A stretch of DNA of 64,000 bases from Escherichia phage Ec_Makalu_003, in sequence record MN882349.1, one strand, 5' to 3'. The notes below the pieces were generated by a model. That model searched no databases and had not been told where the DNA came from. It saw only the letters and a program-made list of their open reading frames with translations. A program made the translations under genes and the position numbers. Below are positions 19,185-59,114 of the stretch, piece after piece (within the stretch, counting starts at the first letter, position 1; every line of letters begins with the position of its first letter).

Positions 19185-19925
19185 ATGTTTAACAACACTC
19201 TTTTTGCTCGCCTTGAATCGCAAAAGGATTATGAGAATACACGACAAACCGAGATTCTCAATCCTTATGTGAACTTCAATAGGCATACTAATACCCAGAC
19301 GTTAGCCGACGTTATGGTCGCTGAAGCTATTCAGATGCGAGGTGTAGAATTATATTACATCCCTCGTGAATTTGTCAAACCAGACATGATCTTTGGCGAG
19401 GATGTTCAAAGCAAATTTACTAAAGCATGGAAATTTGCGGCTTATATTAACTCATTTGATGGGTATGAAGGAGCGGGGAATTTCTTCTCTAGTTTCGGTT
19501 ATCAAGCCAATGATGAACTAACTTTTACGGTTAACCCCAACCTATTCAAGCATCAAGTAGATGATCAAGAGCCAAAATCAGGTGACTTGATTTATATTCC
19601 AATGAGTAATGATTTATTTGAAATTAATTACGTTGAGCCATATCAGCCGTTTTTTCAGGCTGGCAAAAATGCTATGCGTAAAATTATTGCAGAGAAATTC
19701 GTGTATAGCGGTGAGGAATTGCGACCAGAATTACAACGCAACGAGGGAATTAATGTTGATGAGTTTGCGGATCTGGATCTTGCACCGATCACTAATCTGG
19801 ACGGGTTAACAGATATCAACTTAGATCAGTACAAAGAAGATAAGCAATTCAGAAGCGAAGGACAAGATTTTATTGATCCGTTTGATCCTATTAATGGCAA
19901 GGGTTCACCTTTCGCCGATTTTTGA
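19185..19925 (+). CDS. 14: neck protein gp14
   Basis: 246 aa (T4 gp14 256 aa); SD GGAGTA; gene order. Confidence 0.8.
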
Positions 19926-32816: not shown

Positions 32817-34058
32817 ATGACTCATATTTTTACTGAACTGTTGCGGGAATCTACTTCCTCAGTAGCTAACCAGACAGCGCGACCGCAACTATTATCATTA
32901 ACTCGCGCGGTAAACAACCTGATTTTCTCTGATCTGGTAGCAATCCAGCCAACGGATCAACCAGTATCTGCATTGTACGGACTACGTTATCTTAATCATG
33001 ATGGTCAGATGACTTTCCGAACTGCTGCAACCTACGGTGGCGCGGTTGGTGATCGCACAGAGATTGAAGAGTTTTCAAAAGAAAAATCTTATGAAGAAGG
33101 CGCACTATTCAAATCAGGCGATGTTGTATACGAAGTTGTGACCGCTGGTACAGTCGGTGAAGATGCCGCAACTCCAGAAGCTGCGATCTTTAAAGGCGTA
33201 ATGACAAACAAAATTCGTTTCTATAGCGATTGTGCATCGGTAGAATACTTTGAAGATAAAAACACCGAAATTGCGTCTACCTCTATGCAGTTTGACAAGT
33301 GGCAAGTTAATGTAGGTTCTCGTAAACTGAAAACCTCGTTCACCACTGAATTAATGCAGGATCTTGAGGCAAGCCAAATCAACTCTGAAAACTCTGTAAT
33401 TGATCTTCTGGCTACTGTTGCTTCCGAAGAGATCAACAAAGATATTATTCAGAAGTTGATCACTGTATCATCTCGCTATAAAATTAAAGGGATCACCCCT
33501 GATGGCGTACTTTCTCTCGTTAGCGTTCAGGATGCACCAACACAAGCGCGTGAACTTTACCGCTATGCTTGCGAGATGAGCAATCAAATGTTGCGGACTT
33601 CCTCCTTTGCTGGTACATACGTTTTGGCGTCTTCTCGCGTGGTTGGCCTCCTGCAATCTTCCGGTTGGATGGAAGAAACCGACAATGCTCTAAGCGAAGG
33701 TCGTCTACGTTGCGGTCTGGAAGTTTACGCAGACACGACAACACCTTTCGATTATATGCTCGTTGGTTGCAAGCACATGATCGGTGATATGGAGAGTGTC
33801 GGTTCTCTGTTCTACTCCCCATACACAGAAGCCGACGGCGCTGGCGCGTATAAGAGCGTAATTGACCCTAATAGCTTCCAGCATCATGTAGCTATTATGA
33901 ATCGTTATTCACTCTCTGTCAACCCATACACATCAAAAGTTGATCAGGAAGAACACCAGGTCATCAAGGGTGACGATTGGGGTAAAATGGCTGGACGTTC
34001 AGAAATGTCCTACATTTTAGGAATCGAACTGCCACCACTTGAGATTGACAACGCTTAA
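32817..34058 (+). CDS. 24: head vertex protein gp24
   Basis: 413 aa from ATG 32817 (MTHIFTELLRESTSS...LTRAVNNLIFSDLVAIQPTDQPVSALYG), matching the recalled T4 gp24 N-terminus; the track start 32769 is an upstream TTG that includes the promoter. Confidence 0.9.
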   Translation: MTHIFTELLRESTSSVANQTARPQLLSLTRAVNNLIFSDLVAIQPTDQPVSALYGLRYLNHDGQMTFRTAATYGGAVGDRTEIEEFSKEKSYEEGALFKSGDVVYEVVTAGTVGEDAATPEAAIFKGVMTNKIRFYSDCASVEYFEDKNTEIASTSMQFDKWQVNVGSRKLKTSFTTELMQDLEASQINSENSVIDLLATVASEEINKDIIQKLITVSSRYKIKGITPDGVLSLVSVQDAPTQARELYRYACEMSNQMLRTSSFAGTYVLASSRVVGLLQSSGWMEETDNALSEGRLRCGLEVYADTTTPFDYMLVGCKHMIGDMESVGSLFYSPYTEADGAGAYKSVIDPNSFQHHVAIMNRYSLSVNPYTSKVDQEEHQVIKGDDWGKMAGRSEMSYILGIELPPLEIDNA

Positions 34059-34646
34059 CTAAATATCTAACCAAGACAAGTCAGATCCGCCCAAGATTTT
34101 TTCGACGGCGGATCTATTTTCTTGATGATATAAGTTAAAACATGGTATCCCATGTCTACGGGCAACATAAACAGCAATTCGAGTTCCTCCCGAAACGATT
34201 CCATTAACTTCTTTCGCCCAGAATATCACACAATCTACAGGGTCATCAAGTGTCTCACCTAAGACTTGAGCAACATTTCTAGAAAACAGATTTTGCATGT
34301 ATAACGGTATAGATCGAGGATTATCATAAACGTGTTCTAATTCATCCATCGCCAGATTTTTTTGTTCTAAGGTTTGCCATGCAATCACATCATGACCGTT
34401 ATGCTTATGGTCGTAAAACTTCCAATTTGGAATGAAAATTTTTCTATAATCTGGATCGTAATACTTCATGAAAGCATTGTCCATACCGTAAGCCCCTCCA
34501 GAATGCGCTACAACGCGATTTTCTGACAATACCCTCCCAATGGTACTAGCCATTATCAAAATGTCGCTAGGCGCTTTTCTAGAGCCTATTAAAGCACATC
34601 TACGAAGTGGTTTTACTCCAAATAGATCTTGTAACTGGTCAAACAT
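34059..34646 (-). CDS. DprA/Smf-like (SLOG superfamily) Rossmann-fold protein
   Basis: 195 aa; strong SD GGAGGAAA; motifs CALIGSRKAP, VVAHSGGAYGMD, FSRNVAQVLG, IVSGGTRIAVYVARRHGIPCF resemble the DprA core. Confidence 0.6.
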   Translation of the reverse strand: MFDQLQDLFGVKPLRRCALIGSRKAPSDILIMASTIGRVLSENRVVAHSGGAYGMDNAFMKYYDPDYRKIFIPNWKFYDHKHNGHDVIAWQTLEQKNLAMDELEHVYDNPRSIPLYMQNLFSRNVAQVLGETLDDPVDCVIFWAKEVNGIVSGGTRIAVYVARRHGIPCFNLYHQENRSAVEKILGGSDLSWLDI

Positions 34647-34798
34647 AATATTTCCTCCATAGAAAGCAATATCATACTACAAGTTAATAACAAATACAAG
34701 TATCCGCGTAGCGGAAGCGAGCACAGCGAGCAATAAAACACTTCCAGTAATTGATTAATAAATGTTCGAAACAAATTTTTATTATTCTATAAGATAAG

Positions 34799-34824
34799 TC
34801 TTCGTTTTGATCATAATTTAATCA
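34799..34824. repeat. 26-bp perfect direct repeat, copy 1
   Basis: TCTTCGTTTTGATCATAATTTAATCA; identical copy at 34948-34973 within a 415-bp non-coding stretch. Confidence 0.8.
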
Positions 34825-34947
34825 TACATGTAAAAACGACACAAAAGGATATCGCTTCGCGAACTCCTACGGAGTATAACATTTGTGTTACATTATGTGG
34901 TGATTAATAATTAATCAAAGATACATTTTCTATGTTCTAAAGATCTT

Positions 34948-34973
34948 TCTTCGTTTTGATCATAATTTAATCA
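34948..34973. repeat. 26-bp perfect direct repeat, copy 2
   Basis: TCTTCGTTTTGATCATAATTTAATCA; identical to copy 1. Confidence 0.8.
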
Positions 34974-35024
34974 AACAGTATTAATATTGTCCATATGTAA
35001 ACTAAAATTATGTCAGTAATAGAT

Positions 35025-35052
35025 ACAAAAAAAGCCGCCCCGAAGGACGGCT
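35025..35052 (-). terminator. rho-independent terminator (minus strand)
   Basis: Hairpin AGCCGTCCTTCGGGGCGGCT followed by a T-run on the minus strand, downstream of the ORF at 35061-35498. Confidence 0.65.
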
Positions 35053-35060
35053 AATGTTAA

Positions 35061-35498
35061 TTATTTGTTGATAACGATCTGATTTCGGCGAATGGTGACA
35101 TTGCTCTTAGAGATGACCAGATCATCCGGCACTACGTTAGTTTTGTATGGTTGGAAGCGAACAAGCATCTGATTGCGTTTAGACCCTTCCTTAATCTTGA
35201 TTTCCATCTGGATATTGTTGCCTACGTGAGCAACCGCAATTTCACCTTTATTCTCATAGACCCACTTGCTGGTAACGTCTCCCGCAAAAGCCTTAATAAC
35301 TTGCAATGCTTCGTCGTATGCGGTAGAGCTGTGAACTTTCAGAAGGCCAGCCGTAGCAAGACGGGAGCAGGTGATCGCCGGAGATTGCCAAACATCAACA
35401 TTAATTTGCTCAATCAGAGTAACACCGCCCTGATCAACTGCTTTGAATGCTTCGAACATTGCCTTTTTCATTGCTACGTGGTTTTTACGGAATTTCAT
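35061..35498 (-). CDS. hypothetical protein
   Basis: 145 aa minus-strand ORF, last gene of a three-gene early cassette; no recognisable motif. Confidence 0.6.
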   Translation of the reverse strand: MKFRKNHVAMKKAMFEAFKAVDQGGVTLIEQINVDVWQSPAITCSRLATAGLLKVHSSTAYDEALQVIKAFAGDVTSKWVYENKGEIAVAHVGNNIQMEIKIKEGSKRNQMLVRFQPYKTNVVPDDLVISKSNVTIRRNQIVINK

Positions 35499-35544
35499 AA
35501 TTAGTCACCTCTATTGATTAGTTATTCAGAATATTAATTACAAA

Positions 35545-35820
35545 TCAGGACATTGCCCGTTTGAATGCGTCCATTATAACAGTGTTATTTGGCTTGTCAA
35601 CACGTTTTTGAACTTTATTTTTAAATTTTTTGTTTATGTGGTGTTTACGATAAACAACCTTTTCACGGCTGGCGTAAGCCTCGCGTGCATCTTTTACCAT
35701 CAACCATGCCTTAGCCGCATCTTGTCCGCTGATCCCGCCAATCTTCTTAGCAATATCAACAAAATTAAGACCGTGATCTTCGCGTAGCATGTAAACCATT
35801 AACGCTGTTTTCTTGTCCAT
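35545..35820 (-). CDS. hypothetical protein with putative helix-turn-helix
   Basis: 91 aa; segment LNFVDIAKKIGGISGQDAAKAW resembles an HTH; basic C-terminus. Confidence 0.5.
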   Translation of the reverse strand: MDKKTALMVYMLREDHGLNFVDIAKKIGGISGQDAAKAWLMVKDAREAYASREKVVYRKHHINKKFKNKVQKRVDKPNNTVIMDAFKRAMS

Positions 35821-36017
35821 TACTTCGCCTCATTGACGATTAACAGGATAGTGATCAGTACCGGAAACTGGATCATGACAGTACCAATAAACCGGATAAA
35901 CGCATTTTCTGACTTCCACACATGACATGCGACTAGCTGATAGACCATTGTTGCAACCAAAGCCAGAAAATACATCTCGATTGGCGTTTCTTTGATCAAT
36001 CGTACAATCTCATTCAT
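35820..36017 (-). CDS. hypothetical small membrane protein
   Basis: 65 aa with two hydrophobic stretches (YFLALVATMVYQLVA; VMIQFPVLITILLIV). Confidence 0.5.
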   Translation of the reverse strand: MNEIVRLIKETPIEMYFLALVATMVYQLVACHVWKSENAFIRFIGTVMIQFPVLITILLIVNEAK

Positions 36018-36143
36018 ACTTCACCTCATACATTCATAAACACAACAACGAATAGGACAGTAACAGTTATTAAAGCCATTTTCAACCCCATATTCATAAT
36101 ATTTTCTTCGCCTCACGATGACAGTAGCATGTCGATGCGTGCC

Positions 36144-36171
36144 ATTATAGGCATCTAAATCGCTCTGTCAA
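36144..36171 (-). promoter_or_regulatory. sigma70-type early promoter (TTGACA-16-TATAAT, minus strand)
   Basis: Minus-strand TTGACA (36166-36171) and TATAAT (36144-36149), just downstream of the hoc terminator; drives the 36017-35061 cassette. Confidence 0.55.
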
Positions 36172-36180
36172 GCACAAAAA

Positions 36181-36207
36181 CAAAAAAGCCACCCCGAAGG
36201 ATGGCTG
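36181..36207 (-). terminator. rho-independent terminator after hoc (minus strand)
   Basis: Hairpin AGCCATCCTTCGGGGTGGCT followed by TTTTTT on the minus strand. Confidence 0.7.
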
Positions 36208-36217
36208 ATAGATTTCA

Positions 36218-37420
36218 TTAATCACGAATGCGTAGAACTCGCTCTAACGTCTCTCGGTCCAGTTTATGTAACTCTTTGGAATGATACATGAAACCATTGC
36301 GAGATTCCATGCAAGTGCAATCACTATATTTTTCTTCCGCTGCCGCGATTGTCTCCAGATCTTTGGCGTACTTGCTGGTTGAATAAACTTCTCGGTTACG
36401 CCACTCTAAACCAGCCTCATTGAATTTAACAATCTCGTCAAATACCCACCATCCAATGTAGATAAATGAAGTTTTGCGCCACGGGATCGGGTGTACGTAA
36501 CGAAACATTTTAACAACTTCCATTGAACATTTTCTACTTGTACTTGTTGCAACTTCTACTGTTTCATCTTCGATCTGTTGATATAGTTTAGCAACACACC
36601 AGAATTTGGCTGTGTCATCGTAAGTAGCACTCTCTTTGAACAGATGACCGTCTGGCATGATAGAAAATCCTTCCAGTGCTTCGCCGACCTCACTACCGAT
36701 TAGAGTCGGTGACATTTGCCCTTCGCGCTGCAAATACCAGTTATATTTGATCGTCAAATTAGGCATACCGCTAGAATCGCCTACAATGTTCTCTGACACA
36801 ACATAATTAAGTAAGATCTCATTACCTAGTGCCACGGTCTTTGATTCCACCACATCCTGATCTACGTTCATTGTTGCCAGCATGATTTTAGTCGATGCGC
36901 TATCGGCTGAATCTTCCGACTCACCCCACACTTTTACAGTATACACGCCGTTTTTATCTGCTGTAAATTTTTGGATCGTAATATCCTGTGTTGTGTCTAT
37001 AACTTCTTCGCCCTTACTCCAACTATAATGTAGTTCATAGTTGTCTGCTGGAGTCTTCCCACCCGAAAATTTTACTGTTGCATGTAATTCTACGTTTGTT
37101 TGTGATGATACGTAGAATTGCTGCGGTTCGGTGATATTTACGATTAATTCAGCTTCTTCCATGAGGAAAACTTCAGATTCTACTGATTCCATCGTATCGG
37201 TATCTTGTACCGTTACTTTATAGCTACCCGCATTTTCACTTGTTGCGTCTGCTACAGTTAGCGTAGCTGTGCTATTTTCATGCGGTTGGTCGTCTTTTGT
37301 CCATGTATATGTCAAATTGCTGGGTAATGGTTCGTCACCCGCTACAGTCGCCGTTAAGGTGAAACCATCTCCAGCAAGAAAACATCTTTTGTTAGATTGT
37401 ATTGATACTGTGAAAGCCAT
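36218..37420 (-). CDS. hoc: head outer capsid protein Hoc
   Basis: 400 aa; Ig-like repeats; C-terminus YVHPIPWRKTSFIYIGWWVFDEI...ESRNGFMYHSKEL matches the recalled T4 Hoc C-terminus. Confidence 0.9.
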   Translation of the reverse strand: MAFTVSIQSNKRCFLAGDGFTLTATVAGDEPLPSNLTYTWTKDDQPHENSTATLTVADATSENAGSYKVTVQDTDTMESVESEVFLMEEAELIVNITEPQQFYVSSQTNVELHATVKFSGGKTPADNYELHYSWSKGEEVIDTTQDITIQKFTADKNGVYTVKVWGESEDSADSASTKIMLATMNVDQDVVESKTVALGNEILLNYVVSENIVGDSSGMPNLTIKYNWYLQREGQMSPTLIGSEVGEALEGFSIMPDGHLFKESATYDDTAKFWCVAKLYQQIEDETVEVATSTSRKCSMEVVKMFRYVHPIPWRKTSFIYIGWWVFDEIVKFNEAGLEWRNREVYSTSKYAKDLETIAAAEEKYSDCTCMESRNGFMYHSKELHKLDRETLERVLRIRD

Positions 37421-37515: not shown

Positions 37516-37680
37516 TTAGAATAGTGATGTAACGAGGCCGAAATAGTATCGATCTCGTCTTGGTATTTGTTCTGTTATAAAGTCTGCTGTACTAACAACA
37601 ATCTTTAACAGAAGTGGATGACCAACGGAGCCATAAACCGGACCTTCTGTTTGATGTAATACATTGATTTTGTTAGACAT
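37516..37680 (-). CDS. hypothetical small protein (54 aa)
   Basis: Minus-strand ORF with SD AGAGGA; MSNKINVLHQTEGPVYGSVGHPLLLKIVVSTADFITEQIPRRDRYYFGLVTSLF. Below the size cut-off of the ORF track. Confidence 0.45.
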   Translation of the reverse strand: MSNKINVLHQTEGPVYGSVGHPLLLKIVVSTADFITEQIPRRDRYYFGLVTSLF

Positions 37681-37758
37681 GTAGTATCCTCTTTTAATTG
37701 CATAACGGAACTACAATTAAAATTATAACAAATATTTCACAACTTTTATCACCCAAAA

Positions 37759-38475
37759 TTACTTGAGTGTGTGGAATTGGCTATGTTTAGTCTCTCTCAC
37801 CTTGACAGACCCATCGCGTTTGATATAATAGATCAGTGACTTGAGGGTGTCGTGTACATACGCGTGCGGGAAACGCTCTGGATACTTCTTCCAATCTGGA
37901 GTATTAACGATCCAGTCGAAAATCCACCACGGGCAGGAGTAGTAACCACGACCGCCACCGATCAAGCAAATGGTCGGACGGAAACCAGTAAGATCACAAA
38001 ATGAATCAGTGTCATGTGCAGGAGAACGATGCTCTGCTTCGTCAGAGAAAATGTTTGCTACCGGAGATTCCACTTTAACTTCCGGTACAACCACAATTTC
38101 AACTGGTACTGTGTGTGGTTTGGCTTCTTCTACAACTGTAACTGGTTCTTCTTTTTGTTCTGGTTCTTTCATTGCTTCAACCAGAGACGGATCAACTTCG
38201 TCGAATACCACTTTATCATCTGCGGTGTCTGCTGCCAGAATAAGATCGTTAATACTGGTTCCTTCTGCCGGAGTTTCTTCTTCCATTTCGGAAGCCAGTT
38301 TAGTTAATTCGGTTTCTACGAACTCGATCATGTTCTCTAGTGATAAAGTCTTTTTGACCTTAATATCAAATTGTTTTGCGTAGTCAGCTAATTCTGTTTT
38401 AGCTGTTTTCTGTGCTTCTTTGTCGTCGGACGCCGCAATAGCGCGGAGTTCTTCGAAATATTCTTTATCAAACAT
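37759..38475 (-). CDS. inh: inhibitor of prohead protease Inh
   Basis: 238 aa (T4 Inh 226 aa); acidic central region; C-terminal CPWWIFDWI motif shared with Hoc; position next to hoc. Confidence 0.75.
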   Translation of the reverse strand: MFDKEYFEELRAIAASDDKEAQKTAKTELADYAKQFDIKVKKTLSLENMIEFVETELTKLASEMEEETPAEGTSINDLILAADTADDKVVFDEVDPSLVEAMKEPEQKEEPVTVVEEAKPHTVPVEIVVVPEVKVESPVANIFSDEAEHRSPAHDTDSFCDLTGFRPTICLIGGGRGYYSCPWWIFDWIVNTPDWKKYPERFPHAYVHDTLKSLIYYIKRDGSVKVRETKHSQFHTLK

Positions 38476-38501
38476 GCTATTCTCCTGATTGGGGGTGTTT
38501 G

Positions 38502-38509
38502 TATAAATA
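38502..38509 (+). promoter_or_regulatory. T4-type late promoter TATAAATA upstream of uvsW
   Basis: Exact TATAAATA 36 nt upstream of the uvsW ATG at 38546. Confidence 0.55.
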
Positions 38510-38545
38510 TTTGTATACTGTATTTATTGAGTGAGGCTATTCGCT

Positions 38546-51985: not shown

Positions 51986-52021
51986 TTGATACTCCTTAGT
52001 AGTTCGTTTCGGTATGGGTGT

Positions 52022-52050
52022 ATTATGATATACACCCTCTGTTATGTCAA
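52022..52050 (-). promoter_or_regulatory. repeated early promoter cassette C1 (TTGACA-17-CATAAT)
   Basis: Minus-strand -35 TTGACA, 17-nt spacer, -10 CATAAT; inverted repeat GGGTGTAT/ATACACCC spans the -10; conserved leader and AGGAG SD. Confidence 0.6.
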
Positions 52051-52056
52051 CAACTT

Positions 52057-52236
52057 TTAGAACATTTTTGAAATTAATTCTGCTTTGATTTCGCAGAGAA
52101 CATCTAAAGATTTCTCGTCACCCGCTTTTGCTGCTTCTGCTTGCATTTTTGAAATGGCTTCAATGTCAGTGCAATTATAAGCCGCTTGAACTTTAGCGAT
52201 TGCGATGATTGCCGATTCGATGGTTAAGTGTTTCAT
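52057..52236 (-). CDS. hypothetical small protein (59 aa)
   Basis: Minus-strand ORF preceded by cassette C2 with SD AGGAG; below track cut-off. Confidence 0.5.
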   Translation of the reverse strand: MKHLTIESAIIAIAKVQAAYNCTDIEAISKMQAEAAKAGDEKSLDVLCEIKAELISKMF

Positions 52237-52268
52237 GTTTGATTCTCCTTTCGTTTCGGTATGTGTGC

Positions 52269-52297
52269 AGTATAGGGGATCGCCGATCCCCTGTCAA
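52269..52297 (-). promoter_or_regulatory. repeated early promoter cassette C2 (TTGACA-17-TATACT)
   Basis: The 17-nt spacer is the perfect palindrome GGGGATCGGCGATCCCC; same cassette as C10. Confidence 0.6.
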
Positions 52298-52304
52298 CAA
52301 CTTT

Positions 52305-52823
52305 TTAGTTATTTTTTAATTGCTCATCTTGCAATAATGCAATCACATGCTGGCGATGTTCTTCCGATTGAGGAACACCGAAAAAGTTTGTTTTGTAGAA
52401 ATACTCTAATCGGTCTTCTCGTGTGCTCTCTTCCATCATGATCGCGGGTAGTCCAAGATTTCGGAAACGTCGCTTTTCTGCTGGCGTAAAATCACTGTAA
52501 TACAACATAGAATCATCATTACCAGCAATGCTAAACTCATCCTTCATAAAGGAGAATATTGCGTTTAAACGCTGTTTACCGTCCACGATTTCGATCTCAT
52601 AGCGAGAGCCATCATCAATCTTAGCCATTGCGATAGCACCAACCGGAAAATCATTAATCAGGTTTTCGATAAACATACGTTTGTTTTCGGTGTCCCATAC
52701 CAAAGGACGCTGATAATCTGGGTTCATGTTGATATAGCCATCTTCTAACCACGCCTCATAAACAGAGATGACAAAGTTTTTAGTATTGGTATAGTAACGG
52801 CGTTTAGGCGTTAAACGGTTCAT
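52305..52823 (-). CDS. DUF262-like (ParB/Srx-fold) protein
   Basis: 172 aa from ATG 52823 (SD AGGAG); DYQRPLVW and VDGKQRL resemble the DUF262 N-terminal motifs (DGQQR type); last gene of a five-gene operon. Confidence 0.55.
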   Translation of the reverse strand: MNRLTPKRRYYTNTKNFVISVYEAWLEDGYINMNPDYQRPLVWDTENKRMFIENLINDFPVGAIAMAKIDDGSRYEIEIVDGKQRLNAIFSFMKDEFSIAGNDDSMLYYSDFTPAEKRRFRNLGLPAIMMEESTREDRLEYFYKTNFFGVPQSEEHRQHVIALLQDEQLKNN

Positions 52824-52824
52824 G

Positions 52825-53157
52825 TTATAGTCTCCTGAATGGATCATCACGTAAATCAATATCTTTTAAGAACTCATCCCATGAATGGCGGATAATGTTC
52901 TTAATTCTCCAGATAAGCGCAGGGATTGAACGCTCTCCCATCTGGAAGTAAGGATCATATGATCCATATGCCCAATATGCTACTACAATTCCACAATCGG
53001 CGCAATAATATTCTATTTCACTTGCTGGCGACCAAAGTCCATCAATATGATCACGGATCTTGCTTTCGATGTTATGGCTATGGCAATCAGGGCAACGGAT
53101 GCAATGACCTTGTTTATCGTAATTTGACGTTAGCGAATACTTAAACAATCTCATCAT
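52825..53157 (-). CDS. zinc-ribbon protein
   Basis: 110 aa; CIRCPDC ... CADCG (CxxC...CxxC); start overlaps upstream stop. Confidence 0.55.
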   Translation of the reverse strand: MMRLFKYSLTSNYDKQGHCIRCPDCHSHNIESKIRDHIDGLWSPASEIEYYCADCGIVVAYWAYGSYDPYFQMGERSIPALIWRIKNIIRHSWDEFLKDIDLRDDPFRRL

Positions 53158-53870
53158 AGATCCTTATTGGCTTCAAATACTGCCTTTGCGAATCCTCGCG
53201 GGGTAAGTGACCTGATAGTCTTTGTTCTGGTTCCTTTCCCGCCTAGCTTAGAATGCTGTTTACTGTACCCTTTATTAATCTGCAACGGTTTCTTTTCTGG
53301 CATTATAAAGCCTTGTCCGGTCCATAAGCAAGTCTTTTTCGGGTACATATCACGGGCGGCAATATACTCAGGAAACGTAGGATGCTTATCATCTTCCGGC
53401 AAATAACCGCCATATTCCCACGGATGGAACATGTAATCAGGCTTACGCCACATGCTAGAGATAACGCTTACAGGATTCTCTATCATGTAGGGAACTCCTA
53501 GCCATTCACCCAAATAAGCGGTTATTTTAGCTGCCCTTACATCATGAACTTGAATTAATGGTCCTTGTTCTCGTTTCTTTCGTTCAAAGTGCGCAGCGCC
53601 ACTAACAGCTAAATTGGTGCATGGTGGGAATGCAAAGATAATATCCGGTTTCCCCCATTCAAGGTCCATTGCTCTTTCCAGCCAATTTAAATCAATCCAT
53701 GTGTTTACATATGTAATGTTTGGATGTTCAAATCTGGTATTATATTTTTTGTATGTACCGTGGTCGCCATCGTCAGCATTAAAGCAGATCACCTTATGAC
53801 CTGCTTTAGCCCATTCTAACCCCATTATCCCCGATCCGTCAAAGTTGCAGAATATTAATTTTTGTTTCAT
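53154..53870 (-). CDS. C5-cytosine DNA methyltransferase-like protein (compact)
   Basis: 238 aa; motif I-like LIFCNFDGSGIMGLEWAKAGHKVICFNADD, motif IV-like IIFAFPPCTNLAVSG (Pro-Cys), motif VI-like MIENP; region after motif VI too short for a typical target-recognition domain. Confidence 0.55.
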   Translation of the reverse strand: MKQKLIFCNFDGSGIMGLEWAKAGHKVICFNADDGDHGTYKKYNTRFEHPNITYVNTWIDLNWLERAMDLEWGKPDIIFAFPPCTNLAVSGAAHFERKKREQGPLIQVHDVRAAKITAYLGEWLGVPYMIENPVSVISSMWRKPDYMFHPWEYGGYLPEDDKHPTFPEYIAARDMYPKKTCLWTGQGFIMPEKKPLQINKGYSKQHSKLGGKGTRTKTIRSLTPRGFAKAVFEANKDL

Positions 53871-54112
53871 ATACGCCCCTTTAACCCAACACAGATTTTA
53901 GAAGGTTCTTTGCCGTGCCACATTAAGTAAATTCCGTTAATGCGTCCTTGTTTTGTATATGATTCTTTTCTGATCTTCTTATAGTGTCGTGCTTCCTCAG
54001 CCGATTGTTTAGAATGTCGATCATAAAGGAAGAGGAACAAAGGCCAACCATTAGCGGCCTTAATGCAGTTATTCAAAAATTCCTTATTTCGTTTAATTAA
54101 TTTTCTTTTCAC
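53867..54112 (-). CDS. hypothetical basic protein
   Basis: 81 aa; GTG start overlapping the upstream stop; Lys/Arg-rich. Confidence 0.45.
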   Translation of the reverse strand: MKRKLIKRNKEFLNNCIKAANGWPLFLFLYDRHSKQSAEEARHYKKIRKESYTKQGRINGIYLMWHGKEPSKICVGLKGRI

Positions 54113-54360
54113 GCTGCCCCCATTGGTTTGATAGTAACAGAATCTAAAAGACCTTTGTTAGCCAGTTCGCGGCAAGTTTTCAGATCCGCAACTTCCCAGC
54201 CAGCCGCAATAAGGTTATCAATGAGGCTGTTAGCAACTTCTTCGCTCATGAAAGAGCACTGTTTGCCGATGGTGTAGCGTACACGCTGTAATTTCAGTTT
54301 ACGGAAGCCTTTAACGTTCAGGTCTTTAGCGATTTTCTTTGCGGTTTCGATGTTAGCCAT
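54109..54360 (-). CDS. hypothetical protein
   Basis: 83 aa; starts MANIE; first gene after cassette C3. Confidence 0.55.
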   Translation of the reverse strand: MANIETAKKIAKDLNVKGFRKLKLQRVRYTIGKQCSFMSEEVANSLIDNLIAAGWEVADLKTCRELANKGLLDSVTIKPMGAA

Positions 54361-54400
54361 TGTTTGATTCTCCTAAGTGGTATCTCGTCTTGATGGTTGT

Positions 54401-54429
54401 ATTGTAGGGGAGTTATCCTCCCCTGTCAA
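54401..54429 (-). promoter_or_regulatory. repeated early promoter cassette C3 (TTGACA-17-TACAAT)
   Basis: Spacer is the palindrome GGGGAGGATAACTCCCC; SD AGGAG downstream. Confidence 0.6.
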
Positions 54430-54443
54430 CACTTTTTATAAAA

Positions 54444-54611
54444 TTATTTGTTAATTTCTGGTGCGTTGCTAGGATAGTAACCTTCTTTAACTCCGAGGTA
54501 TTTTGCAACCATCCCTACAATCTTCTGTGCTACTACAATGTCAAATTTCAGATAATCTTCGCCGTGGGTTTCAATGATATATGCTTCACATGCTGCTTTA
54601 GTCTCGAACAT
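54444..54611 (-). CDS. hypothetical small protein (55 aa), paralog of 57726-57893
   Basis: MFETKAACEAYIIETHGEDYLKFDIVVAQKIVGMVAKYLGVKEGYYPSNAPEINK; near-identical to the ORF at 57726-57893. Confidence 0.55.
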   Translation of the reverse strand: MFETKAACEAYIIETHGEDYLKFDIVVAQKIVGMVAKYLGVKEGYYPSNAPEINK

Positions 54612-54644
54612 TTTGATTCTCCTATTTCGTTTCGGTATGTGTGT

Positions 54645-54673
54645 ATTATAGGGGATCTCCCGATCCCCGTCAA
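54645..54673 (-). promoter_or_regulatory. repeated early promoter cassette C4 (TTGACG-17-TATAAT)
   Basis: Palindromic spacer GGGATCGGGAGATCCCC; SD AGGAG downstream. Confidence 0.6.
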
Positions 54674-54687
54674 CAACTTTTTTAAAA

Positions 54688-54969
54688 TTATTCGTGATTA
54701 GTTTCGATATTGTGCATTTTGCACCAGTTCAGCCAATCGCCAAGATCTTGATAGTTGATGCTTTTATCTGCTGCCATCGTTTTTGTCTTGATACCCATAT
54801 GTGCGTTATGAGTAAGCATTTTTACAGTGAACTCAATTTTATCGCCTTTAGCTTTAACATCAACCAGTTTGGTCCACTGGCTACCAGCACCGCGAATGTT
54901 CATACCAACGATGTTTCCGATGTATGCTTCTTTGTTGTTCAGGATTTCGGTTGCTTTGATGAATTTCAT
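54688..54969 (-). CDS. hypothetical protein
   Basis: 93 aa; preceded by cassette C5. Confidence 0.55.
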   Translation of the reverse strand: MKFIKATEILNNKEAYIGNIVGMNIRGAGSQWTKLVDVKAKGDKIEFTVKMLTHNAHMGIKTKTMAADKSINYQDLGDWLNWCKMHNIETNHE

Positions 54970-55002
54970 TTTTGATTCTCCAGTTCGTTTCGGTATGGGT
55001 GT

Positions 55003-55031
55003 ATTATGCTATGTTCTTACTTTGGTGTCAA
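55003..55031 (-). promoter_or_regulatory. repeated early promoter cassette C5 (TTGACA-17-CATAAT)
   Basis: Same -35/-10/leader/SD architecture as C1; no palindrome in the spacer. Confidence 0.55.
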
Positions 55032-55039
55032 CAACTTTT

Positions 55040-55309
55040 TTAGATATTTTCAGAAATAAATTTTAAAACTTGACGTAAATGTTTCTCATCTTTGATAGTC
55101 GCCGGAAGTTCTTCTTTTACTTCCTGTGCAAGATAGATATTTCCGTTCCAAGTGAAAGACCCGTCTTCGTTTACGCGATAGCTGAACATCCATTCGCAAT
55201 CATTTTCGATTTCATATACACACAGAAGGGTGTAATCTTCAAAGCTATTGATTTCAAGGTCGAAGCCGTGGCGTTTTGCAAAGTTGGTAGTGGTTTTAGT
55301 CAGTGCCAT
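55040..55309 (-). CDS. hypothetical protein
   Basis: 89 aa; preceded by cassette C6. Confidence 0.55.
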   Translation of the reverse strand: MALTKTTTNFAKRHGFDLEINSFEDYTLLCVYEIENDCEWMFSYRVNEDGSFTWNGNIYLAQEVKEELPATIKDEKHLRQVLKFISENI

Positions 55310-55348
55310 TGTTTGATTCTCCTAAGTGGTATCTCGTTTCGATGGGTG

Positions 55349-55377
55349 TATTATGCTATAGGCGTGATCAGGTGTCA
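55349..55377 (-). promoter_or_regulatory. repeated early promoter cassette C6 (TTGACA-17-CATAAT)
   Basis: Same architecture; immediately downstream of the terminator at 55403-55428. Confidence 0.55.
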
Positions 55378-55402
55378 ATGCCTTTTTTAAAATTTTATGC
55401 AA

Positions 55403-55428
55403 TAAAAAAGCCGACACTAAGGTCGGCT
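55403..55428 (-). terminator. rho-independent terminator (minus strand)
   Basis: Hairpin AGCCGACCTTAGTGTCGGCT followed by TTTTTT on the minus strand. Confidence 0.65.
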
Positions 55429-55435
55429 AATAAAA

Positions 55436-55744
55436 TCATTTAGACAAATAATCATTCAGTGCAATCCGGTCGGCATGTTCCGGCGTTACATCAATCGCAA
55501 TCACTTTAACGCGTGCTTTCTTGCGACCTGGGTTTTCTCGTAACCAGTGCTCATGACCGTGAACATTTTTATACTGCGATGCTTCTTCGAAGGTACGGAT
55601 CGGACCAGGGTAATCAGCGTAAAGGATCTCTAGGTCATCGGTGATGTAAAAATATACGTTGTAATTACTGTTCTCTAGCTTAAGCAGAGACTTTCGGAAC
55701 ATTGGGAGATTTTCGCGGGTAAATTCAAAAGTAATATCTTTCAT
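55436..55744 (-). CDS. HxHW-motif small protein family member
   Basis: 102 aa from ATG 55744 (SD GAGGAT); YFYITDDLEILYADY ... HGHEHWL ... VKVIAIDV. Confidence 0.55.
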   Translation of the reverse strand: MKDITFEFTRENLPMFRKSLLKLENSNYNVYFYITDDLEILYADYPGPIRTFEEASQYKNVHGHEHWLRENPGRKKARVKVIAIDVTPEHADRIALNDYLSK

Positions 55745-55766
55745 AGTATTATCCTCAATAGTTGGA

Positions 55767-55788
55767 TGAAAAGGGGGCTTAACGCCCC
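55767..55788 (-). terminator. terminator-like hairpin (minus strand)
   Basis: Hairpin GGGGCGTTAAGCCCCC followed by TTTTC on the minus strand. Confidence 0.5.
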
Positions 55789-55793
55789 ATATA

Positions 55794-56081
55794 TTAAAAC
55801 AGTCCTTCCTGTACACCGTAGTAGAGTTCGTCGCTGATAATTTCATTAATGCGACGGTGTGCATATTCCTGATTTGCGAAGTTGTCAGCAAGTTCTACTT
55901 TAGTTTCACCGTCATGAGTCCATTTAGTGATAACTTTACCATCTGCAAATTTGAAGTTGAACTCTTTAGCTACTGCATCGCGTACCAGACGTGCGAACTT
56001 GTTGTTACGGATTGCATTATCGGTTTCGTGTGCAGCGTGAGCAAATTTGTTAACTTTCAGAGTGATAGTGATGTATGCCAT
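55794..56081 (-). CDS. hypothetical protein
   Basis: 95 aa; preceded by cassette C7. Confidence 0.55.
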   Translation of the reverse strand: MAYITITLKVNKFAHAAHETDNAIRNNKFARLVRDAVAKEFNFKFADGKVITKWTHDGETKVELADNFANQEYAHRRINEIISDELYYGVQEGLF

Positions 56082-56127
56082 AATTTGATTCTCCTAGTTA
56101 GAAAGTGTATCTCGTTTCGATGGGTGT

Positions 56128-56156
56128 ATTATGCTATACACCCGATCTTATGTCAA
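56128..56156 (-). promoter_or_regulatory. repeated early promoter cassette C7 (TTGACA-17-CATAAT)
   Basis: Inverted repeat GGGTGTAT/ATACACCC spans the -10, as in C1. Confidence 0.6.
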
Positions 56157-56163
56157 CACTTTT

Positions 56164-56442
56164 TTATAAAATAATTTTTTGATATTTTTCTATGATGTTT
56201 GTGTAATCCACATCAACCGCTATCACCGTTGCTTCGAATCCACCGTTTAGCCAATGGCTATGGTCATGATCGTGAAAGAAACCAAGACCAGTACGAAGAC
56301 CTTCTTTATATTCGGCGCGTACATTTAGATCATCATCGATAAACAGATAAAACCATGAATTTTTACTAGGATTGATGATACAACCTTTCAGATTAGGGAG
56401 AATATCACGACTAAGAATAAACTTATCACCTACTTTGAACAT
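56164..56442 (-). CDS. HxHW-motif small protein family member
   Basis: 92 aa from ATG 56442 (SD GAGGA); WFYLFIDDDLNVRAEY ... HDHDHSHWL ... VIAVDV. Confidence 0.55.
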   Translation of the reverse strand: MFKVGDKFILSRDILPNLKGCIINPSKNSWFYLFIDDDLNVRAEYKEGLRTGLGFFHDHDHSHWLNGGFEATVIAVDVDYTNIIEKYQKIIL

Positions 56443-56446
56443 AATA

Positions 56447-56767
56447 TTAGTCCTCACTTATAAGGTCAAACCAATTGTTTTTCGCATAATGCTTAATGCG
56501 TGCTTGATCTGCTTCCGCTGGTGATAGATTCCATGCAACCACTACAACTTCTGACGCGTCGTCATCCGTTTCTGATACCCAATGATTGTGATTCATACAG
56601 TTATTTGCGATCGAGTGAGCAAATGATTTCATCACTGGAGACGTATAATCATAGTAACGGATTTTCAGATTTTCATCAACATACAAGTAGATCGTATAAG
56701 GTTTATATTCAGTAACCAGTAACAGACAGTTACGCAATTCTGGGAAAATCTTTTTAGTTAATTTCAT
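56447..56767 (-). CDS. HxHW-motif small protein family member
   Basis: 106 aa from ATG 56767; YTIYLYVDENLKIRYYDY ... HNHW ... VVVVAW. Confidence 0.5.
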   Translation of the reverse strand: MKLTKKIFPELRNCLLLVTEYKPYTIYLYVDENLKIRYYDYTSPVMKSFAHSIANNCMNHNHWVSETDDDASEVVVVAWNLSPAEADQARIKHYAKNNWFDLISED

Positions 56768-56768
56768 T

Positions 56769-56987
56769 TTATAATCCTCGGTCGCGGCTATAGTACACGG
56801 TACGCCATACAATTTCATGTTTCGTGTCGCTCCAGCACACGATCTCATTTACTCTTAAATCTTTGTTATCAACAAAAGATGAACATTGTGACGCTTCTTT
56901 CATCATTTTATCTGCTGTTTTCTCATCAAATACAGCACAGATTTCTTTATACACTCGATAATCTTTGAATTGACTCTGGATACCCAT
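56769..56987 (-). CDS. hypothetical protein, tandem paralog of 56947-57204
   Basis: About 72 aa; SQFKDYRVYKEICAVFDEKTADKMMKEASQCSSF parallels the upstream ORF; start uncertain (56987 or 56999). Confidence 0.45.
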   Translation of the reverse strand: MGIQSQFKDYRVYKEICAVFDEKTADKMMKEASQCSSFVDNKDLRVNEIVCWSDTKHEIVWRTVYYSRDRGL

Positions 56988-57204
56988 AATTAACACCATT
57001 CCAACCAATTGTTTTTGAGAAAACGTTTATCCACTGTTGAGTGTAGCATGTTTCTTTCCATGATACAATACGAGTAGAATAATGGTTTTTGTTTCCAGAA
57101 AAGGACGGGCATTTTGATGCATCTTCCATCATCTTTTCGGCGAACTCCGCGTCATATACCCGCAGGATCTGTTGATATGCTTTATAATCTTTAAATTTGC
57201 TCAT
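56947..57204 (-). CDS. hypothetical protein, tandem paralog of 56769-56987
   Basis: 85 aa; MSKFKDYKAYQQILRVYDAEFAEKMMEDASKCPSF. Confidence 0.5.
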   Translation of the reverse strand: MSKFKDYKAYQQILRVYDAEFAEKMMEDASKCPSFSGNKNHYSTRIVSWKETCYTQQWINVFSKTIGWNGVNYGYPESIQRLSSV

Positions 57205-57469
57205 AATTGTTAACTACCTTATCAGCTTCTTTTATTGTTTTTACATCAACTGCGATAATCCGTAAAGGTTCGTCGAAGGTCCACCAGTGGTCATGAATAT
57301 CAGCTTGTGATTTATCACCAAAGGAATCACGAATATCATTTTTACATTTATAGCTAATATGGCCTTCATAGTCAACATAAAGGTAATTATCGAAAATCGG
57401 AGTTTTTAAGATCATACCGAAAAATCTTTCTTTGTGTGTCTTATCAAGTGTTGCAGTAATTCGCATCAT
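57191..57469 (-). CDS. HxHW-motif small protein family member
   Basis: 92 aa; SD GAGGA; NYLYVDYEGHISY ... HDHWW ... RIIAVDV. Confidence 0.55.
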   Translation of the reverse strand: MMRITATLDKTHKERFFGMILKTPIFDNYLYVDYEGHISYKCKNDIRDSFGDKSQADIHDHWWTFDEPLRIIAVDVKTIKEADKVVNNYEQI

Positions 57470-57481
57470 AATATATTCCTC

Positions 57482-57661
57482 TTAGAAAGGGATGGTCATT
57501 TCTTGAGCTTGTACATTCTCGTTAGGATTAAACTTCATCCAACCGATATTGTCTACCAGCATATGTACATTTTTATCATATCCTACGTGAGTAGTCAACA
57601 CTAAATGTGCTTTACCTTCAACGATGATTTCCATGTACTTCTGAACTTCGATAGCTTTCAT
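57482..57661 (-). CDS. hypothetical small protein (59 aa)
   Basis: Minus-strand ORF directly downstream of cassette C8; below track cut-off. Confidence 0.45.
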   Translation of the reverse strand: MKAIEVQKYMEIIVEGKAHLVLTTHVGYDKNVHMLVDNIGWMKFNPNENVQAQEMTIPF

Positions 57662-57693
57662 TTTGATTCTCCGTTTGTTGTCTTGATGGGAGT

Positions 57694-57722
57694 ATCTTAC
57701 TACTCCCTTTAATCATTGTCAA
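57694..57722 (-). promoter_or_regulatory. repeated early promoter cassette C8 (TTGACA-17-TAAGAT, weak -10)
   Basis: Inverted repeat GGGAGTA/TACTCCC overlaps the -10 region. Confidence 0.45.
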
Positions 57723-57725
57723 CTA

Positions 57726-57893
57726 TTATTTGTTAATTTCTGGTGCGTTGCTCGGATAGTAACCTTCTTTAACACCCAGATATTTTGCAACCATTCCGGT
57801 GATCTTCTGTGCTACTACGATATCGAATTTCAGGTAGTCTTCACCGTGGTTTGCTACAATGTATGCTTCGCATTCTGCTTTAGTCTGGAACAT
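57726..57893 (-). CDS. hypothetical small protein (55 aa), paralog of 54444-54611
   Basis: MFQTKAECEAYIVANHGEDYLKFDIVVAQKITGMVAKYLGVKEGYYPSNAPEINK; the track start at 57929 extends into the promoter cassette. Confidence 0.55.
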   Translation of the reverse strand: MFQTKAECEAYIVANHGEDYLKFDIVVAQKITGMVAKYLGVKEGYYPSNAPEINK

Positions 57894-57927
57894 TTTTGAT
57901 TCTCCTATATCTCGTTGGTATGTGTGC

Positions 57928-57956
57928 ATTATAGGGGATCACCGATCCCCTGTCAA
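57928..57956 (-). promoter_or_regulatory. repeated early promoter cassette C9 (TTGACA-17-TATAAT)
   Basis: Palindromic spacer GGGGATCGGTGATCCCC. Confidence 0.6.
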
Positions 57957-57961
57957 CAACT

Positions 57962-58255
57962 TTATAATGCTTTATACGCGTATTTCATAAATTTGTCTGC
58001 CACTTCATTGGCATGTTCAGATTCTACGCCTGATTCGAGAACAATAGCTAGGTCGGTTTCGTCATTCCCGCCGTACCAATGATTTGATGTTCGATTTTTT
58101 TCAATTGGAAATTGGTCACTTTTATCTGTGCGACAAAATACATCTAAATGCTCGTCGATGTAAAAGATCCAATCTTCATAAAGAATAACGGTATTAGCAA
58201 GATTTTTATTGCCTTCAACGAAAGGTTCCGCGACAAATAGCTTAGTTTGTTCCAT
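57962..58255 (-). CDS. HxHW-motif small protein family member (divergent)
   Basis: 97 aa from ATG 58255 (SD GAGGAA); ILYEDWIFYIDEHLDVF ... SNHWYGG ... LAIVLESG. Confidence 0.5.
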   Translation of the reverse strand: MEQTKLFVAEPFVEGNKNLANTVILYEDWIFYIDEHLDVFCRTDKSDQFPIEKNRTSNHWYGGNDETDLAIVLESGVESEHANEVADKFMKYAYKAL

Positions 58256-58271
58256 AGTAATTTCCTCAAAA

Positions 58272-58463
58272 TTATACAGTTTCGTAAACTTCCCAATGTT
58301 CAGCGCCAACACGCTTAACGAAAAGGTTTTCTTTGATGTTATTCATAAACGTCTGGATGGATTTAATGCGGTTTGAAGGTTTCCATTCTTCGTTGGCATT
58401 GCGTCGATACATCATAACATTACCAGTTCGCTTATATTCAGCAACCATTTTAAGACCACACAT
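58272..58463 (-). CDS. hypothetical protein
   Basis: 63 aa; SD GAGGA. Confidence 0.5.
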   Translation of the reverse strand: MCGLKMVAEYKRTGNVMMYRRNANEEWKPSNRIKSIQTFMNNIKENLFVKRVGAEHWEVYETV

Positions 58464-58520
58464 AATATTATCCTCAATTTGTGGGAGAGTATTACCCCTC
58501 CCAATGATTGTTATGTTATA

Positions 58521-58841
58521 TCACACAAAATGGCGTGTCAATGCTTCTTTTGCGGTTCCGCTAAGACTTTCAATCTCGCCTGGCATAACATCAACCGCCA
58601 GAACTTCTACAACATCTTCGGACCCTAACCAGTGAGTATGGCCTTTGTAGAACTTGATAACCAGACCACCTTCCTCGTCCCATTTAACGCTATCGCTAGC
58701 CCACCACACATCACCGTCGATAAAGTTGATGTAAAGCACACTACGCCACATTGAATTAATTACTTTCAATACTGCGCCTTTCATCTCTTCCACGGTATGG
58801 TCTTCCATTTTGAAGACCTCACCTACCTGAACTTTTGCCAT
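58521..58841 (-). CDS. HxHW-motif small protein family member
   Basis: 106 aa; VLYINFIDGDVWWASD ... HTHWL ... VLAVDV. Confidence 0.55.
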   Translation of the reverse strand: MAKVQVGEVFKMEDHTVEEMKGAVLKVINSMWRSVLYINFIDGDVWWASDSVKWDEEGGLVIKFYKGHTHWLGSEDVVEVLAVDVMPGEIESLSGTAKEALTRHFV

Positions 58842-58858
58842 TTAGTCACCTCTCTTTA

Positions 58859-59038
58859 TTACATAACAATCACGCCAGCCGTTGAAAGTTGATGTTTCAA
58901 CTGAGCATTTTCTGCTACTGTCAAATCAATGATTTCTTGTGACGCTGCAATCATATAACCATTGGTGATATTGTTTTGCATCAGTTCAATGGTTTCTTCG
59001 TTGTAGCGGATTTTAGCGATGATTTCGTTGAAGTTCAT
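58859..59038 (-). CDS. hypothetical small protein (59 aa)
   Basis: MNFNEIIAKIRYNEETIELMQNN...; preceded by cassette C10; the track start at 59104 extends into the promoter. Confidence 0.5.
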   Translation of the reverse strand: MNFNEIIAKIRYNEETIELMQNNITNGYMIAASQEIIDLTVAENAQLKHQLSTAGVIVM

Positions 59039-59072
59039 AATTGATTCTCCTAGTTCGTTTCGGTATGTGTGC

Positions 59073-59101: not shown

Positions 59102-59114
59102 CAACTTTTTTGAA

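Follow-up and report, generated by a model that had tools for sequence, protein, structure and literature searches.

A probable two-promoter early operon between hoc and gene 24 of the Krischvirus phage Ec_Makalu_003

Background

Escherichia phage Ec_Makalu_003 (sequence record MN882349.1) carries a cassette of small minus-strand genes between the late genes hoc and 24, which was analysed here within a stretch of 64,000 nucleotides (nt) of its DNA, hereafter called the window. Two groups of described systems are close to this cassette. The first is the T4 unit at the same locus. In T-even phages, the genes are ordered inh-hoc-24.3-24.2-rnlB and face gene 24, with a terminator after hoc and 24.3 as the first gene after hoc; in Enterobacter phage CC31, the order is hoc, 24.3, an open reading frame (ORF) of 73 amino acids (aa), rnlB, and a DprA-like gene. 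A time-resolved omics study of T4 classed 24.3, 24.2, and rnlB as early RNA and middle-phase protein (PMC9697503, supplement).

The second group consists of the promoter-early stem-loops (PeSLs) of phages RB49 and phi1, sigma-70 consensus promoters joined to stable terminator stem-loops, of which about 50 occur per genome in five arrangements (Arbiol et al. 2010, PMC2839356). One of these arrangements has the stem-loop upstream of the -35 box. Promoter and terminator activity was shown by lacZ reporters for PeSLs other than the element considered here, and hoc was named among the PeSL-associated genes; the junction between hoc and the cassette is not discussed in the main text of that paper. 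The PeSL cassettes of both phages have also been treated by Comeau et al. (2014, PMC4122927). Furthermore, the early promoters of RB49, a phage that has neither motA nor middle promoters, were 5'-mapped and fit the consensus of the two promoters described below (PMC1524935, citing Desplats 2002).

Results and discussion

Organization of the cassette

The cassette is best explained as the Krischvirus form of a conserved T4-type early unit between the late genes hoc and 24, and it very probably represents an early operon driven by sigma-70, with two promoters, that is closed off by two terminators. Its features, in the order of transcription, are:

36178-36206, minus strand: intrinsic terminator after hoc (hairpin 36206-36187), AGCCATCC-TTCG-GGGTGGCT followed by a T-run
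36144-36171, minus strand: P1, sigma-70 consensus promoter, TTGACA-16-TATAAT (12/12 match), putatively for the micropeptide ORF and the 65-aa and 91-aa genes
36026-36097, minus strand: unannotated ORF for a hydrophobic micropeptide, MNMGLKMALITVTVLFVVVFMNV from the ATG at 36097 (23 aa), or 17 aa from the ATG at 36079
35820-36017, minus strand: 65-aa membrane protein with two transmembrane (TM) segments (RB49 ORF167c; phrog_16558)
35545-35820, minus strand: 91-aa gp24.3 orthologue (DUF2774), with a predicted helix-turn-helix (HTH) domain at residues ~1-60 and the C-terminal ~23 aa encoded by the P2 DNA
35573-35600, minus strand: P2, second sigma-70 consensus promoter, A-rich upstream tract and TTGACA-16-TG-TATAAT (12/12)
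35061-35498, minus strand: 145-aa protein (RB49 ORF165c), with a predicted fold of helices and a beta-hairpin; lineage-restricted by sequence
35026-35052, minus strand: closing intrinsic terminator (hairpin 35052-35033), AGCCGTCC-TTCG-GGGCGGCT followed by a T-run

The 91-aa protein gave a match of 100.3 bits to the Pfam family DUF2774 (PF11242; cut-off 29.2, E 6.7e-29), corresponds to phrog_1566, and is the orthologue of T4 gp24.3. The cassette is therefore the local version of the T-even unit 24.3-24.2-rnlB. Members of DUF2774 occur in more than 850 T4-like phage records, and the position of the gp24.3 gene downstream of hoc is kept in the neighbourhoods of RB32, CC31, and Cronus. Given the gene order in the T-even phages and CC31 and the early RNA class of the T4 genes, an early unit between hoc and gene 24 is ancestral and not a local oddity.

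An initial annotation, made from the sequence of the window alone, had described one TTGACA/TATAAT promoter just past the hoc terminator that drives three small genes (a two-helix membrane protein, an HTH-like protein, and a 145-aa protein) and ends at a terminator of its own, the whole being an insulated early unit inside a late region. The observation itself was confirmed. P1 (36171-36144) lies directly behind the hoc terminator, and the hairpin at 35052-35033 closes the unit; the 65-aa ORF (36017-35820) has two hydrophobic segments, and the predicted model of the 91-aa protein does match HTH domains, of the sigma region 4 / LuxR type. All three ORFs were found in place and look like real genes, as judged from the codon bias of the 145-aa gene, the DUF2774 match, and the hydrophobic segments, respectively. 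The minus-strand layout from promoter to terminator thus stood, but the single promoter has to be supplemented with P2 (35600-35573) and the three ORFs, probably, with a fourth. The P2 promoter, the micropeptide ORF, and the orthology with gp24.3 had all been missed.

Conservation of the locus

The region matched 58 phage records with at least 90% identity, all belonging to Krischvirus (RB49, phi1, JSE, and GEC-3S-like T4-type coliphages), Ec_Makalu_002 being the best match to the window (99.6% identity). On the minus strand, inh is followed by a 54-aa ORF, hoc (37420-36218), the cassette, a non-coding gap of 414 nt, and a DprA-like gene (34646-34059); gene 24 lies on the plus strand and faces these genes. 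The 65-, 91-, and 145-aa ORFs are RB49 ORF167c, 24.3, and ORF165c, respectively, and are annotated in relatives. Diverged metagenomic relatives, found with the 145-aa protein as query, encode ORF165 homologues of 58-89% identity and preserve the order inh-hoc-(small ORF)-DUF2774-ORF165-DprA-like / gp24. Five of these diverged lineages (L016, L017, L020, L021, and L022) were compared for promoters, terminators, and small ORFs, while the counts of substitutions and promoter variation given below were taken from an alignment of 14 Krischvirus genomes.

This conservation bears on the alternative that the cassette is not ancestral but a recently mobile PeSL module, inserted or excised through a mini-circle by recombination between flanking repeats (Arbiol et al. 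2010). Indeed, the two flanking terminators are near-identical in sequence, AGCC(A/G)TCCTTCGGGG(T/C)GGCT plus a T-run, in direct orientation and about 1.15 kb apart, and the second hairpin is followed, at the same distance as P1 from the first, by a degenerate -35-like CTGACA. In addition, the slot beside P1 is plastic, being occupied by the 65-aa gene in Krischvirus only, taken by an unrelated ORF of 61 aa in L016, and empty in L017, L020, and the T-even phages; the 5' half of the 65-aa gene, encoding the N-terminal half of the protein, comes in two diverged alleles with a sharp mosaic boundary; and hoc belongs to the PeSL-associated genes. However, the whole block was present in 58 out of 58 Krischvirus database records (at least 80% coverage), without any presence/absence polymorphism there or in the diverged relatives, gene order was unchanged even in relatives with a nucleotide identity of only 53-83% in their genes, and gp24.3 adjoins hoc in the T-even phages too. 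At most the 65-aa slot looks shuffled, not the unit, and a recent arrival of the cassette as a mobile module is unlikely. Similarly, the unit is not a peculiar insertion, as it is syntenic in the metagenomic relatives and its gp24.3 orthologue follows hoc directly in the T-even phages and yields early RNA in T4 (PMC9697503). The interpretation of the initial annotation, an insulated early unit, is partly supported: the strong hoc terminator and the sigma-70-type promoters agree with it, and early timing in Ec_Makalu_003 is what these sequences suggest.

Promoters P1 and P2

P2 reads AAACAAAAAATTTAAAAATAAAGTTCAAAAACGTG-TTGACA-16-TG-TATAAT, with a TG-extended -10, and lies near the 3' end of the 91-aa ORF, within its final 25 codons; 25 nt separate it from the stop codon of this ORF and about 75 nt from the start of the 145-aa gene downstream. 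Its hexamers were invariant in the 14 Krischvirus genomes, and P2 was present in all five diverged lineages, with 6/6 positions of the -35 and 5-6/6 positions of the -10 retained in L021, L020, L017, and L016, while the DUF2774 gene itself is only 53-79% identical at nucleotide level in the diverged relatives where P2 persists. P2 coincides with the RB49 early promoter 'Pe:98401' in the table of Nolan et al. (2006), which came from an independent hidden Markov model scan (PMC1524935).

The match could have been kept only for the C-terminal peptide of gp24.3, VDKPxNxV[I/M]MDAF, P2 being no working promoter and the 145-aa gene being transcribed from P1 solely. This peptide motif is indeed conserved in four lineages, and P2 lies inside an ORF and has no significant stem-loop (best fold downstream of the -10 of -4.9 kcal/mol, z 0.2), because of which it is not a canonical PeSL. 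Two variants separate the constraint on the DNA from that on the protein. Firstly, in L016, which has a 17-nt spacer, the hexamers are kept in another frame, TTGACA being read as TTG ACA (L-T) and not as gTT GAC Aag (V-D-K). Secondly, in L022, an upstream indel shifts the frame and the ORF stops at the TAA inside TATAAT, which truncates the peptide, but hexamers, spacing, and downstream sequence are intact; the truncated protein was found on six contigs, five of which are 50-200 kb long. Moreover, T-even gp24.3 (71 aa) lacks the tail altogether, tblastn matches to other T4-like phages end at residue ~68 of the 91-aa protein, and P2 displays the A-rich upstream tract, the TG-extended -10, and the CVCAT motif of the canonical early promoters of the phage, besides its listing among the RB49 early promoters. 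A constraint by the peptide only is hence quite improbable. Constraint on P2 acts at the level of the DNA, within a 3' portion of the gp24.3 gene that is dispensable; P2 would be maintained there as a promoter and may drive the 145-aa gene, as an additional start.

P1 is part of a class of sites that is strongly overrepresented in the window, which contains six perfect TTGACA-N16-18-TATAAT sites, compared with 0.14 expected, a number reached in none of 100 shuffles (about 40-fold over chance). The P1 hexamers were invariant in the 14 aligned genomes, in which the spacer is hypervariable, as is the leader, where a 7-nt indel occurs, and a 12/12 match was retained in four of the five diverged lineages (L021, L022, L020, and L017). 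A family signature, CVCAT after the -10, is common to P1, P2, the promoter at 10143, and the canonical palindromic-spacer promoters at 52-59 kb; it was found in 10 of the 12 promoters considered, the background being 2.4%. Folding of the P1 leader revealed no significant RNA structure. By sequence, P1 and P2 are both promoters of the host sigma-70 (early) type and are probably active as such. A relationship of P1 with a T-even promoter was considered as well, as 'TATAATGGCAC' occurs upstream of 24.3 in RB32; no claim of orthology is made, since RB32 has no recognisable -35.

It is highly improbable that the consensus matches are unused and that expression of the genes is late and due to read-through from an inh-hoc transcript. 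On the side of this alternative stand the lack of P1 in L016 and the absence of any exact late promoter (TATAAATA) from the minus strand near hoc. Against it, the unit is flanked by two strong terminators (hairpin plus T-run) that are conserved with changed stems, the perfect consensus promoters are enriched and invariant, and the orthologous T4 genes yield early RNA. Upstream of hoc and inh too, the minus strand carries no exact copy of this late promoter, with only one-mismatch versions upstream of inh (observations at 37675-37765, minus strand, and 38470-38535), while an extended -10 (TGTTATAAT) precedes the 54-aa ORF upstream of hoc.

Other consensus matches were noted in the window. A dense array of canonical early promoters occupies 52000-59110 (minus strand), in which the spacers are palindromic, as in GGGGATCGGCGATCCCC, and the leader, ACACCCATACCGAAACGA...GGAGAATCAAA-ATG, is conserved. 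At 10143-10170 (plus strand), a promoter shares the layout of P1, a terminator followed by a promoter. A perfect sigma-70 consensus, TTGACA-16-TG-TATAAT, at 37802-37829 (plus strand) lies within the 3' end of inh, antisense to this gene and directed toward uvsW. Nine relatives carry the identical sequence, and the diverged L017 retains both hexamers, with two changes in the spacer; the site lacks the CVCAT and the AT-rich upstream tract of the phage early promoters. It could yield early RNA antisense to inh. Lastly, a perfect match with an 18-nt spacer lies antisense within a plus-strand ORF of the late region (19349-19378, minus strand).

Terminators

Both terminators consist of a GC-rich hairpin with a UUCG loop, followed by a U-run, and are conserved by structure. 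The hoc terminator, which forms the stem-loop half of a PeSL-type element, folds with -13.5 kcal/mol (z -4.7), and the closing terminator with -14.8 kcal/mol (z -4.1). A hairpin 3' of hoc was kept in all lineages examined, with differing stem sequences, and followed by a T-run in all except L020; RB32 and CC31 have a hairpin there as well. The ORF165 homologue is followed by a hairpin plus T-run in all lineages. In RB49, the two terminators had already been predicted, as 'RB49ORF167c<--hoc' and 'RB49ORF164c<--RB49ORF165c', respectively (Nolan et al. 2006, PMC1524935, supplement). An Rfam scan of positions 34000-36500 returned sub-threshold matches to the terminator only.

Micropeptide ORF and 65-aa membrane protein

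The micropeptide ORF lies between P1 and the 65-aa gene, and its stop codon overlaps the Shine-Dalgarno (SD) sequence of the latter. The ORF shows four substitutions across the 14 genomes, each of which is silent in its own frame but changes an amino acid in either of the other two. L022 shows further synonymous changes, and in L021 two residues are conservatively replaced and the third start is a GTG. Furthermore, hydrophobic counterparts of 17-18 aa with their own SD sequence occur at the same position in L020 (MILVTVAVLLIVVFGNM, directly before DUF2774) and L016 (MILLPIVVIFVVVLKTMR). Because the substitution count is small, this evidence is good but not conclusive, and the ORF probably constitutes a fourth gene of the unit. 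It is missing from the database annotations examined, or appears there in an incorrect frame or with an N-terminal extension. In some records, a 31-aa ORF starting with GTG (36116-36021) is annotated instead; it was rejected, as all its in-frame substitutions are nonsynonymous and the 7-nt indel in the leader breaks its frame.

For the 65-aa protein, the two hydrophobic segments correspond to TM segments predicted at residues 7-29 and 39-61 of RB49 ORF167c (PMC1524935, supplement). Its ORF contained 20 synonymous and 20 nonsynonymous alternative codons among the 14 genomes, and its stop codon shares bases with the start codon of the 91-aa gene, in TAATG.

The gp24.3 orthologue and the 145-aa protein

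The 91-aa ORF (nine synonymous and seven nonsynonymous alternative codons) is predicted to encode a free-standing HTH domain, as the model of the protein matched sigma region 4 / LuxR-type HTH domains in fold. No meaningful match emerged from sequence searches of the Protein Data Bank (PDB), for which the DUF2774 profile and the 91- and 145-aa proteins served as queries. Similarly, none of the three cassette proteins had a hit in NCBIfam or PADLOC, and no known defence or anti-defence model was matched; DUF2774 was mentioned in no paper found in the literature search.

The 145-aa ORF behaves as a coding sequence, with 28 synonymous and nine nonsynonymous alternative codons and changes at the three codon positions of 4/2/32. 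A winged-helix domain was considered for its predicted fold and is at most a candidate. It has no distant sequence relatives, as a deep HMMER profile search retrieved only two clusters among 1.84 billion representatives. T4 gp24.2 was considered as a homologue and rejected (hhalign probability 0.3%). By predicted structure, an ORF165-like fold adjoins DUF2774 in Erwinia phage Cronus, as a separate gene, and is joined to DUF2774 in CC31. In Cronus, only one gene of the region encodes 113 aa, immediately downstream of and overlapping the DUF2774 gene; we take it to be the Foldseek hit, the UniProt entry presumably corresponding to this GenBank protein. In hhalign, its product aligned marginally to the ORF165 profile, in the same conserved stretch (E 7e-4, probability 27%), and BLASTP gave no significant match. 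The '24.3' protein of CC31 measures 193 aa, of which the N-terminal 67 residues are DUF2774 (BLASTP 5e-9); judged by length, the aligned target residues being unreported, the remainder should carry the ORF165-like fold.

Because the ORF165-like fold adjoins DUF2774 in Cronus and is fused to it in CC31, the 145-aa protein is a likely partner of gp24.3. By analogy with this adjacency and fusion, both proteins are likely to act together, and the predicted fold makes the binding of nucleic acid or the transcription machinery their most likely joint role. More speculatively, and with a low probability, gp24.3 may be a free-standing mimic of sigma-70 region 4 that acts with an ORF165-type partner on -35 recognition. 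It would either occupy TTGACA boxes, among them that of P1 and, within the gp24.3 gene itself, that of P2, or be a competitor for the beta-flap of RNA polymerase or for region-4-binding proteins. If this is true, RB49-type phages, in which MotA and middle promoters are absent, could use such a mimic to help silence or readjust their very strong consensus early promoters.

Proposed expression of the unit

In the proposed early operon, unmodified host RNA polymerase with sigma-70 would start at P1 right after infection, while the hoc terminator, directly before P1, would stop transcripts coming from inh and hoc. The P1 transcript would carry the micropeptide ORF (17-23 aa), the 65-aa gene, and the gp24.3 gene, which appear to be translationally coupled through their overlapping stop, SD, and start signals. 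P2, in the dispensable 3' tail of the gp24.3 gene, would give the 145-aa gene an additional start of its own. Both transcripts would end at the UUCG hairpin at 35052-35033, which would keep transcription of the unit out of the non-coding gap and the DprA-like gene. Four small early proteins would result.

Several observations weigh against this reading or parts of it. In L016, the terminator is present but no sigma-70 consensus occurs upstream of the micropeptide ORF, so P1 is not universal, and in L020 the hairpin 3' of hoc lacks the T-run. The RNA of T4 hoc was classed as 'early' too (PMC9697503, supplement), which makes the early/late boundary at this locus less sharp than assumed. As the searched literature contained no Krischvirus transcriptome paper, timing and promoter use are inferred. 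Lastly, the likeness of DUF2774 to sigma region 4 comes from a predicted model built from an alignment of eight sequences, and neither Sigma70_r4 nor LuxR (GerE) gave a Pfam match at E <= 1, DUF2774 being the sole hit for the 91-aa protein.

Neighbouring genes and the non-coding gap

The hoc gene of the window and of Ec_Makalu_002 is 12 nt shorter at its 3' end than in other relatives (400 aa versus at least 404; positions 36218-36225). In many relatives, a second Hoc-like gene, of ~846 aa and with Ig domains, lies upstream of hoc; it is not present in the window. The relatives listed for the variation of hoc are L006, L007, L009, L010, L015, L016, L017, L021, and L022.

On the other side of the cassette, the gap at 34647-35060, between the closing terminator and the DprA-like gene, is non-coding and well conserved among Krischviruses. 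It contains two direct repeats of 77 nt (34752-34828 and 34901-34977; 73% identical, 149 nt apart) as well as a small hairpin near 34715-34703. At the position of the gap, L016 carries another pair of direct repeats, which are ~50 nt long and contain a hairpin. Rfam gave no match; the gap may serve as a regulatory region or correspond to a small RNA ahead of the DprA-like gene. The DprA-like protein (34059-34646, minus strand) is phrog_768, and its N-terminal, DprA-like segment weakly matched the PADLOC models PsyrA (E 4e-5) and ShosA (3.5e-4). In CC31, the DprA-like gene adjoins rnlB in the same neighbourhood. Downstream of 24.3 in CC31 (L025, 11600-11760, minus strand), a hairpin carries TATAAT in its loop (AAAGAATCCGCGTGGTATAATGGTTTCACGGATTCTTT), a PeSL-like composite in a Karamvirus.

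Comparison with known systems

The cassette is real and above chance, but of a published kind and at an already annotated locus, with P2 and both terminators already among the predictions made for RB49 in 2006. New, to the extent of the libraries searched, are the maintenance of P2 as DNA, the micropeptide ORF, the predicted sigma region 4-like fold of DUF2774, and the link between gp24.3 and ORF165 by fusion and neighbourhood. The micropeptide ORF, if real, is a further unrecognised early gene, and the fold and fusion link provide a concrete hypothesis for a T4 protein annotated as 'conserved hypothetical'.

Compared with sigma factors, the gp24.3 model shares the fold of the sigma region 4 / LuxR-type HTH (sigmaE region 4 on -35 DNA, PDB 2h27; FliA, PDB 1rp3), whereas gp24.3 is a free-standing protein of 70-90 aa, has no regions 2 and 3, and gives no sequence-profile match. 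The CC31 24.3 protein and the Cronus gene pair resemble the cassette in having a DUF2774 HTH domain followed by an ORF165-like predicted fold in the same hoc-rnlB neighbourhood; the window differs from them in the putative promoter of its own for the partner gene, and their sequence similarity to ORF165 is marginal.

The hoc terminator and P1 together resemble a PeSL, being a stem-loop joined to a consensus promoter (12/12, 16-nt spacer), upstream of ORFans, in the same phage group. The hairpin ends 15 nt upstream of the P1 -35, as in the subclass with the stem-loop upstream of that box, and the element is intergenic, between the stop codon of hoc (36218), a PeSL-associated gene, and the first ORF. 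P2 shares the consensus promoter and the AT-rich tract, but has no stem-loop and lies inside coding sequence. Unlike variably present PeSL cassettes, the unit is fixed and syntenic, and only the 65-aa slot beside P1 varies.

The T4 unit 24.3-24.2-rnlB has the same position and strand as the cassette, a terminator after hoc, and the gp24.3 gene. The Krischvirus form differs in that 24.2 and rnlB are replaced by ORF165 and, past the terminator and the 414-nt gap, the DprA-like gene; in that the micropeptide ORF and the 65-aa gene are added upstream of 24.3; and in its perfect consensus promoters and the gp24.3 tail that holds P2. This architecture confirms that RB49-type phages scatter strong composites of sigma-70 promoters and terminators around small accessory genes, even in late regions, and that the interval between hoc and gene 24 houses an early unit across T4-like phages.

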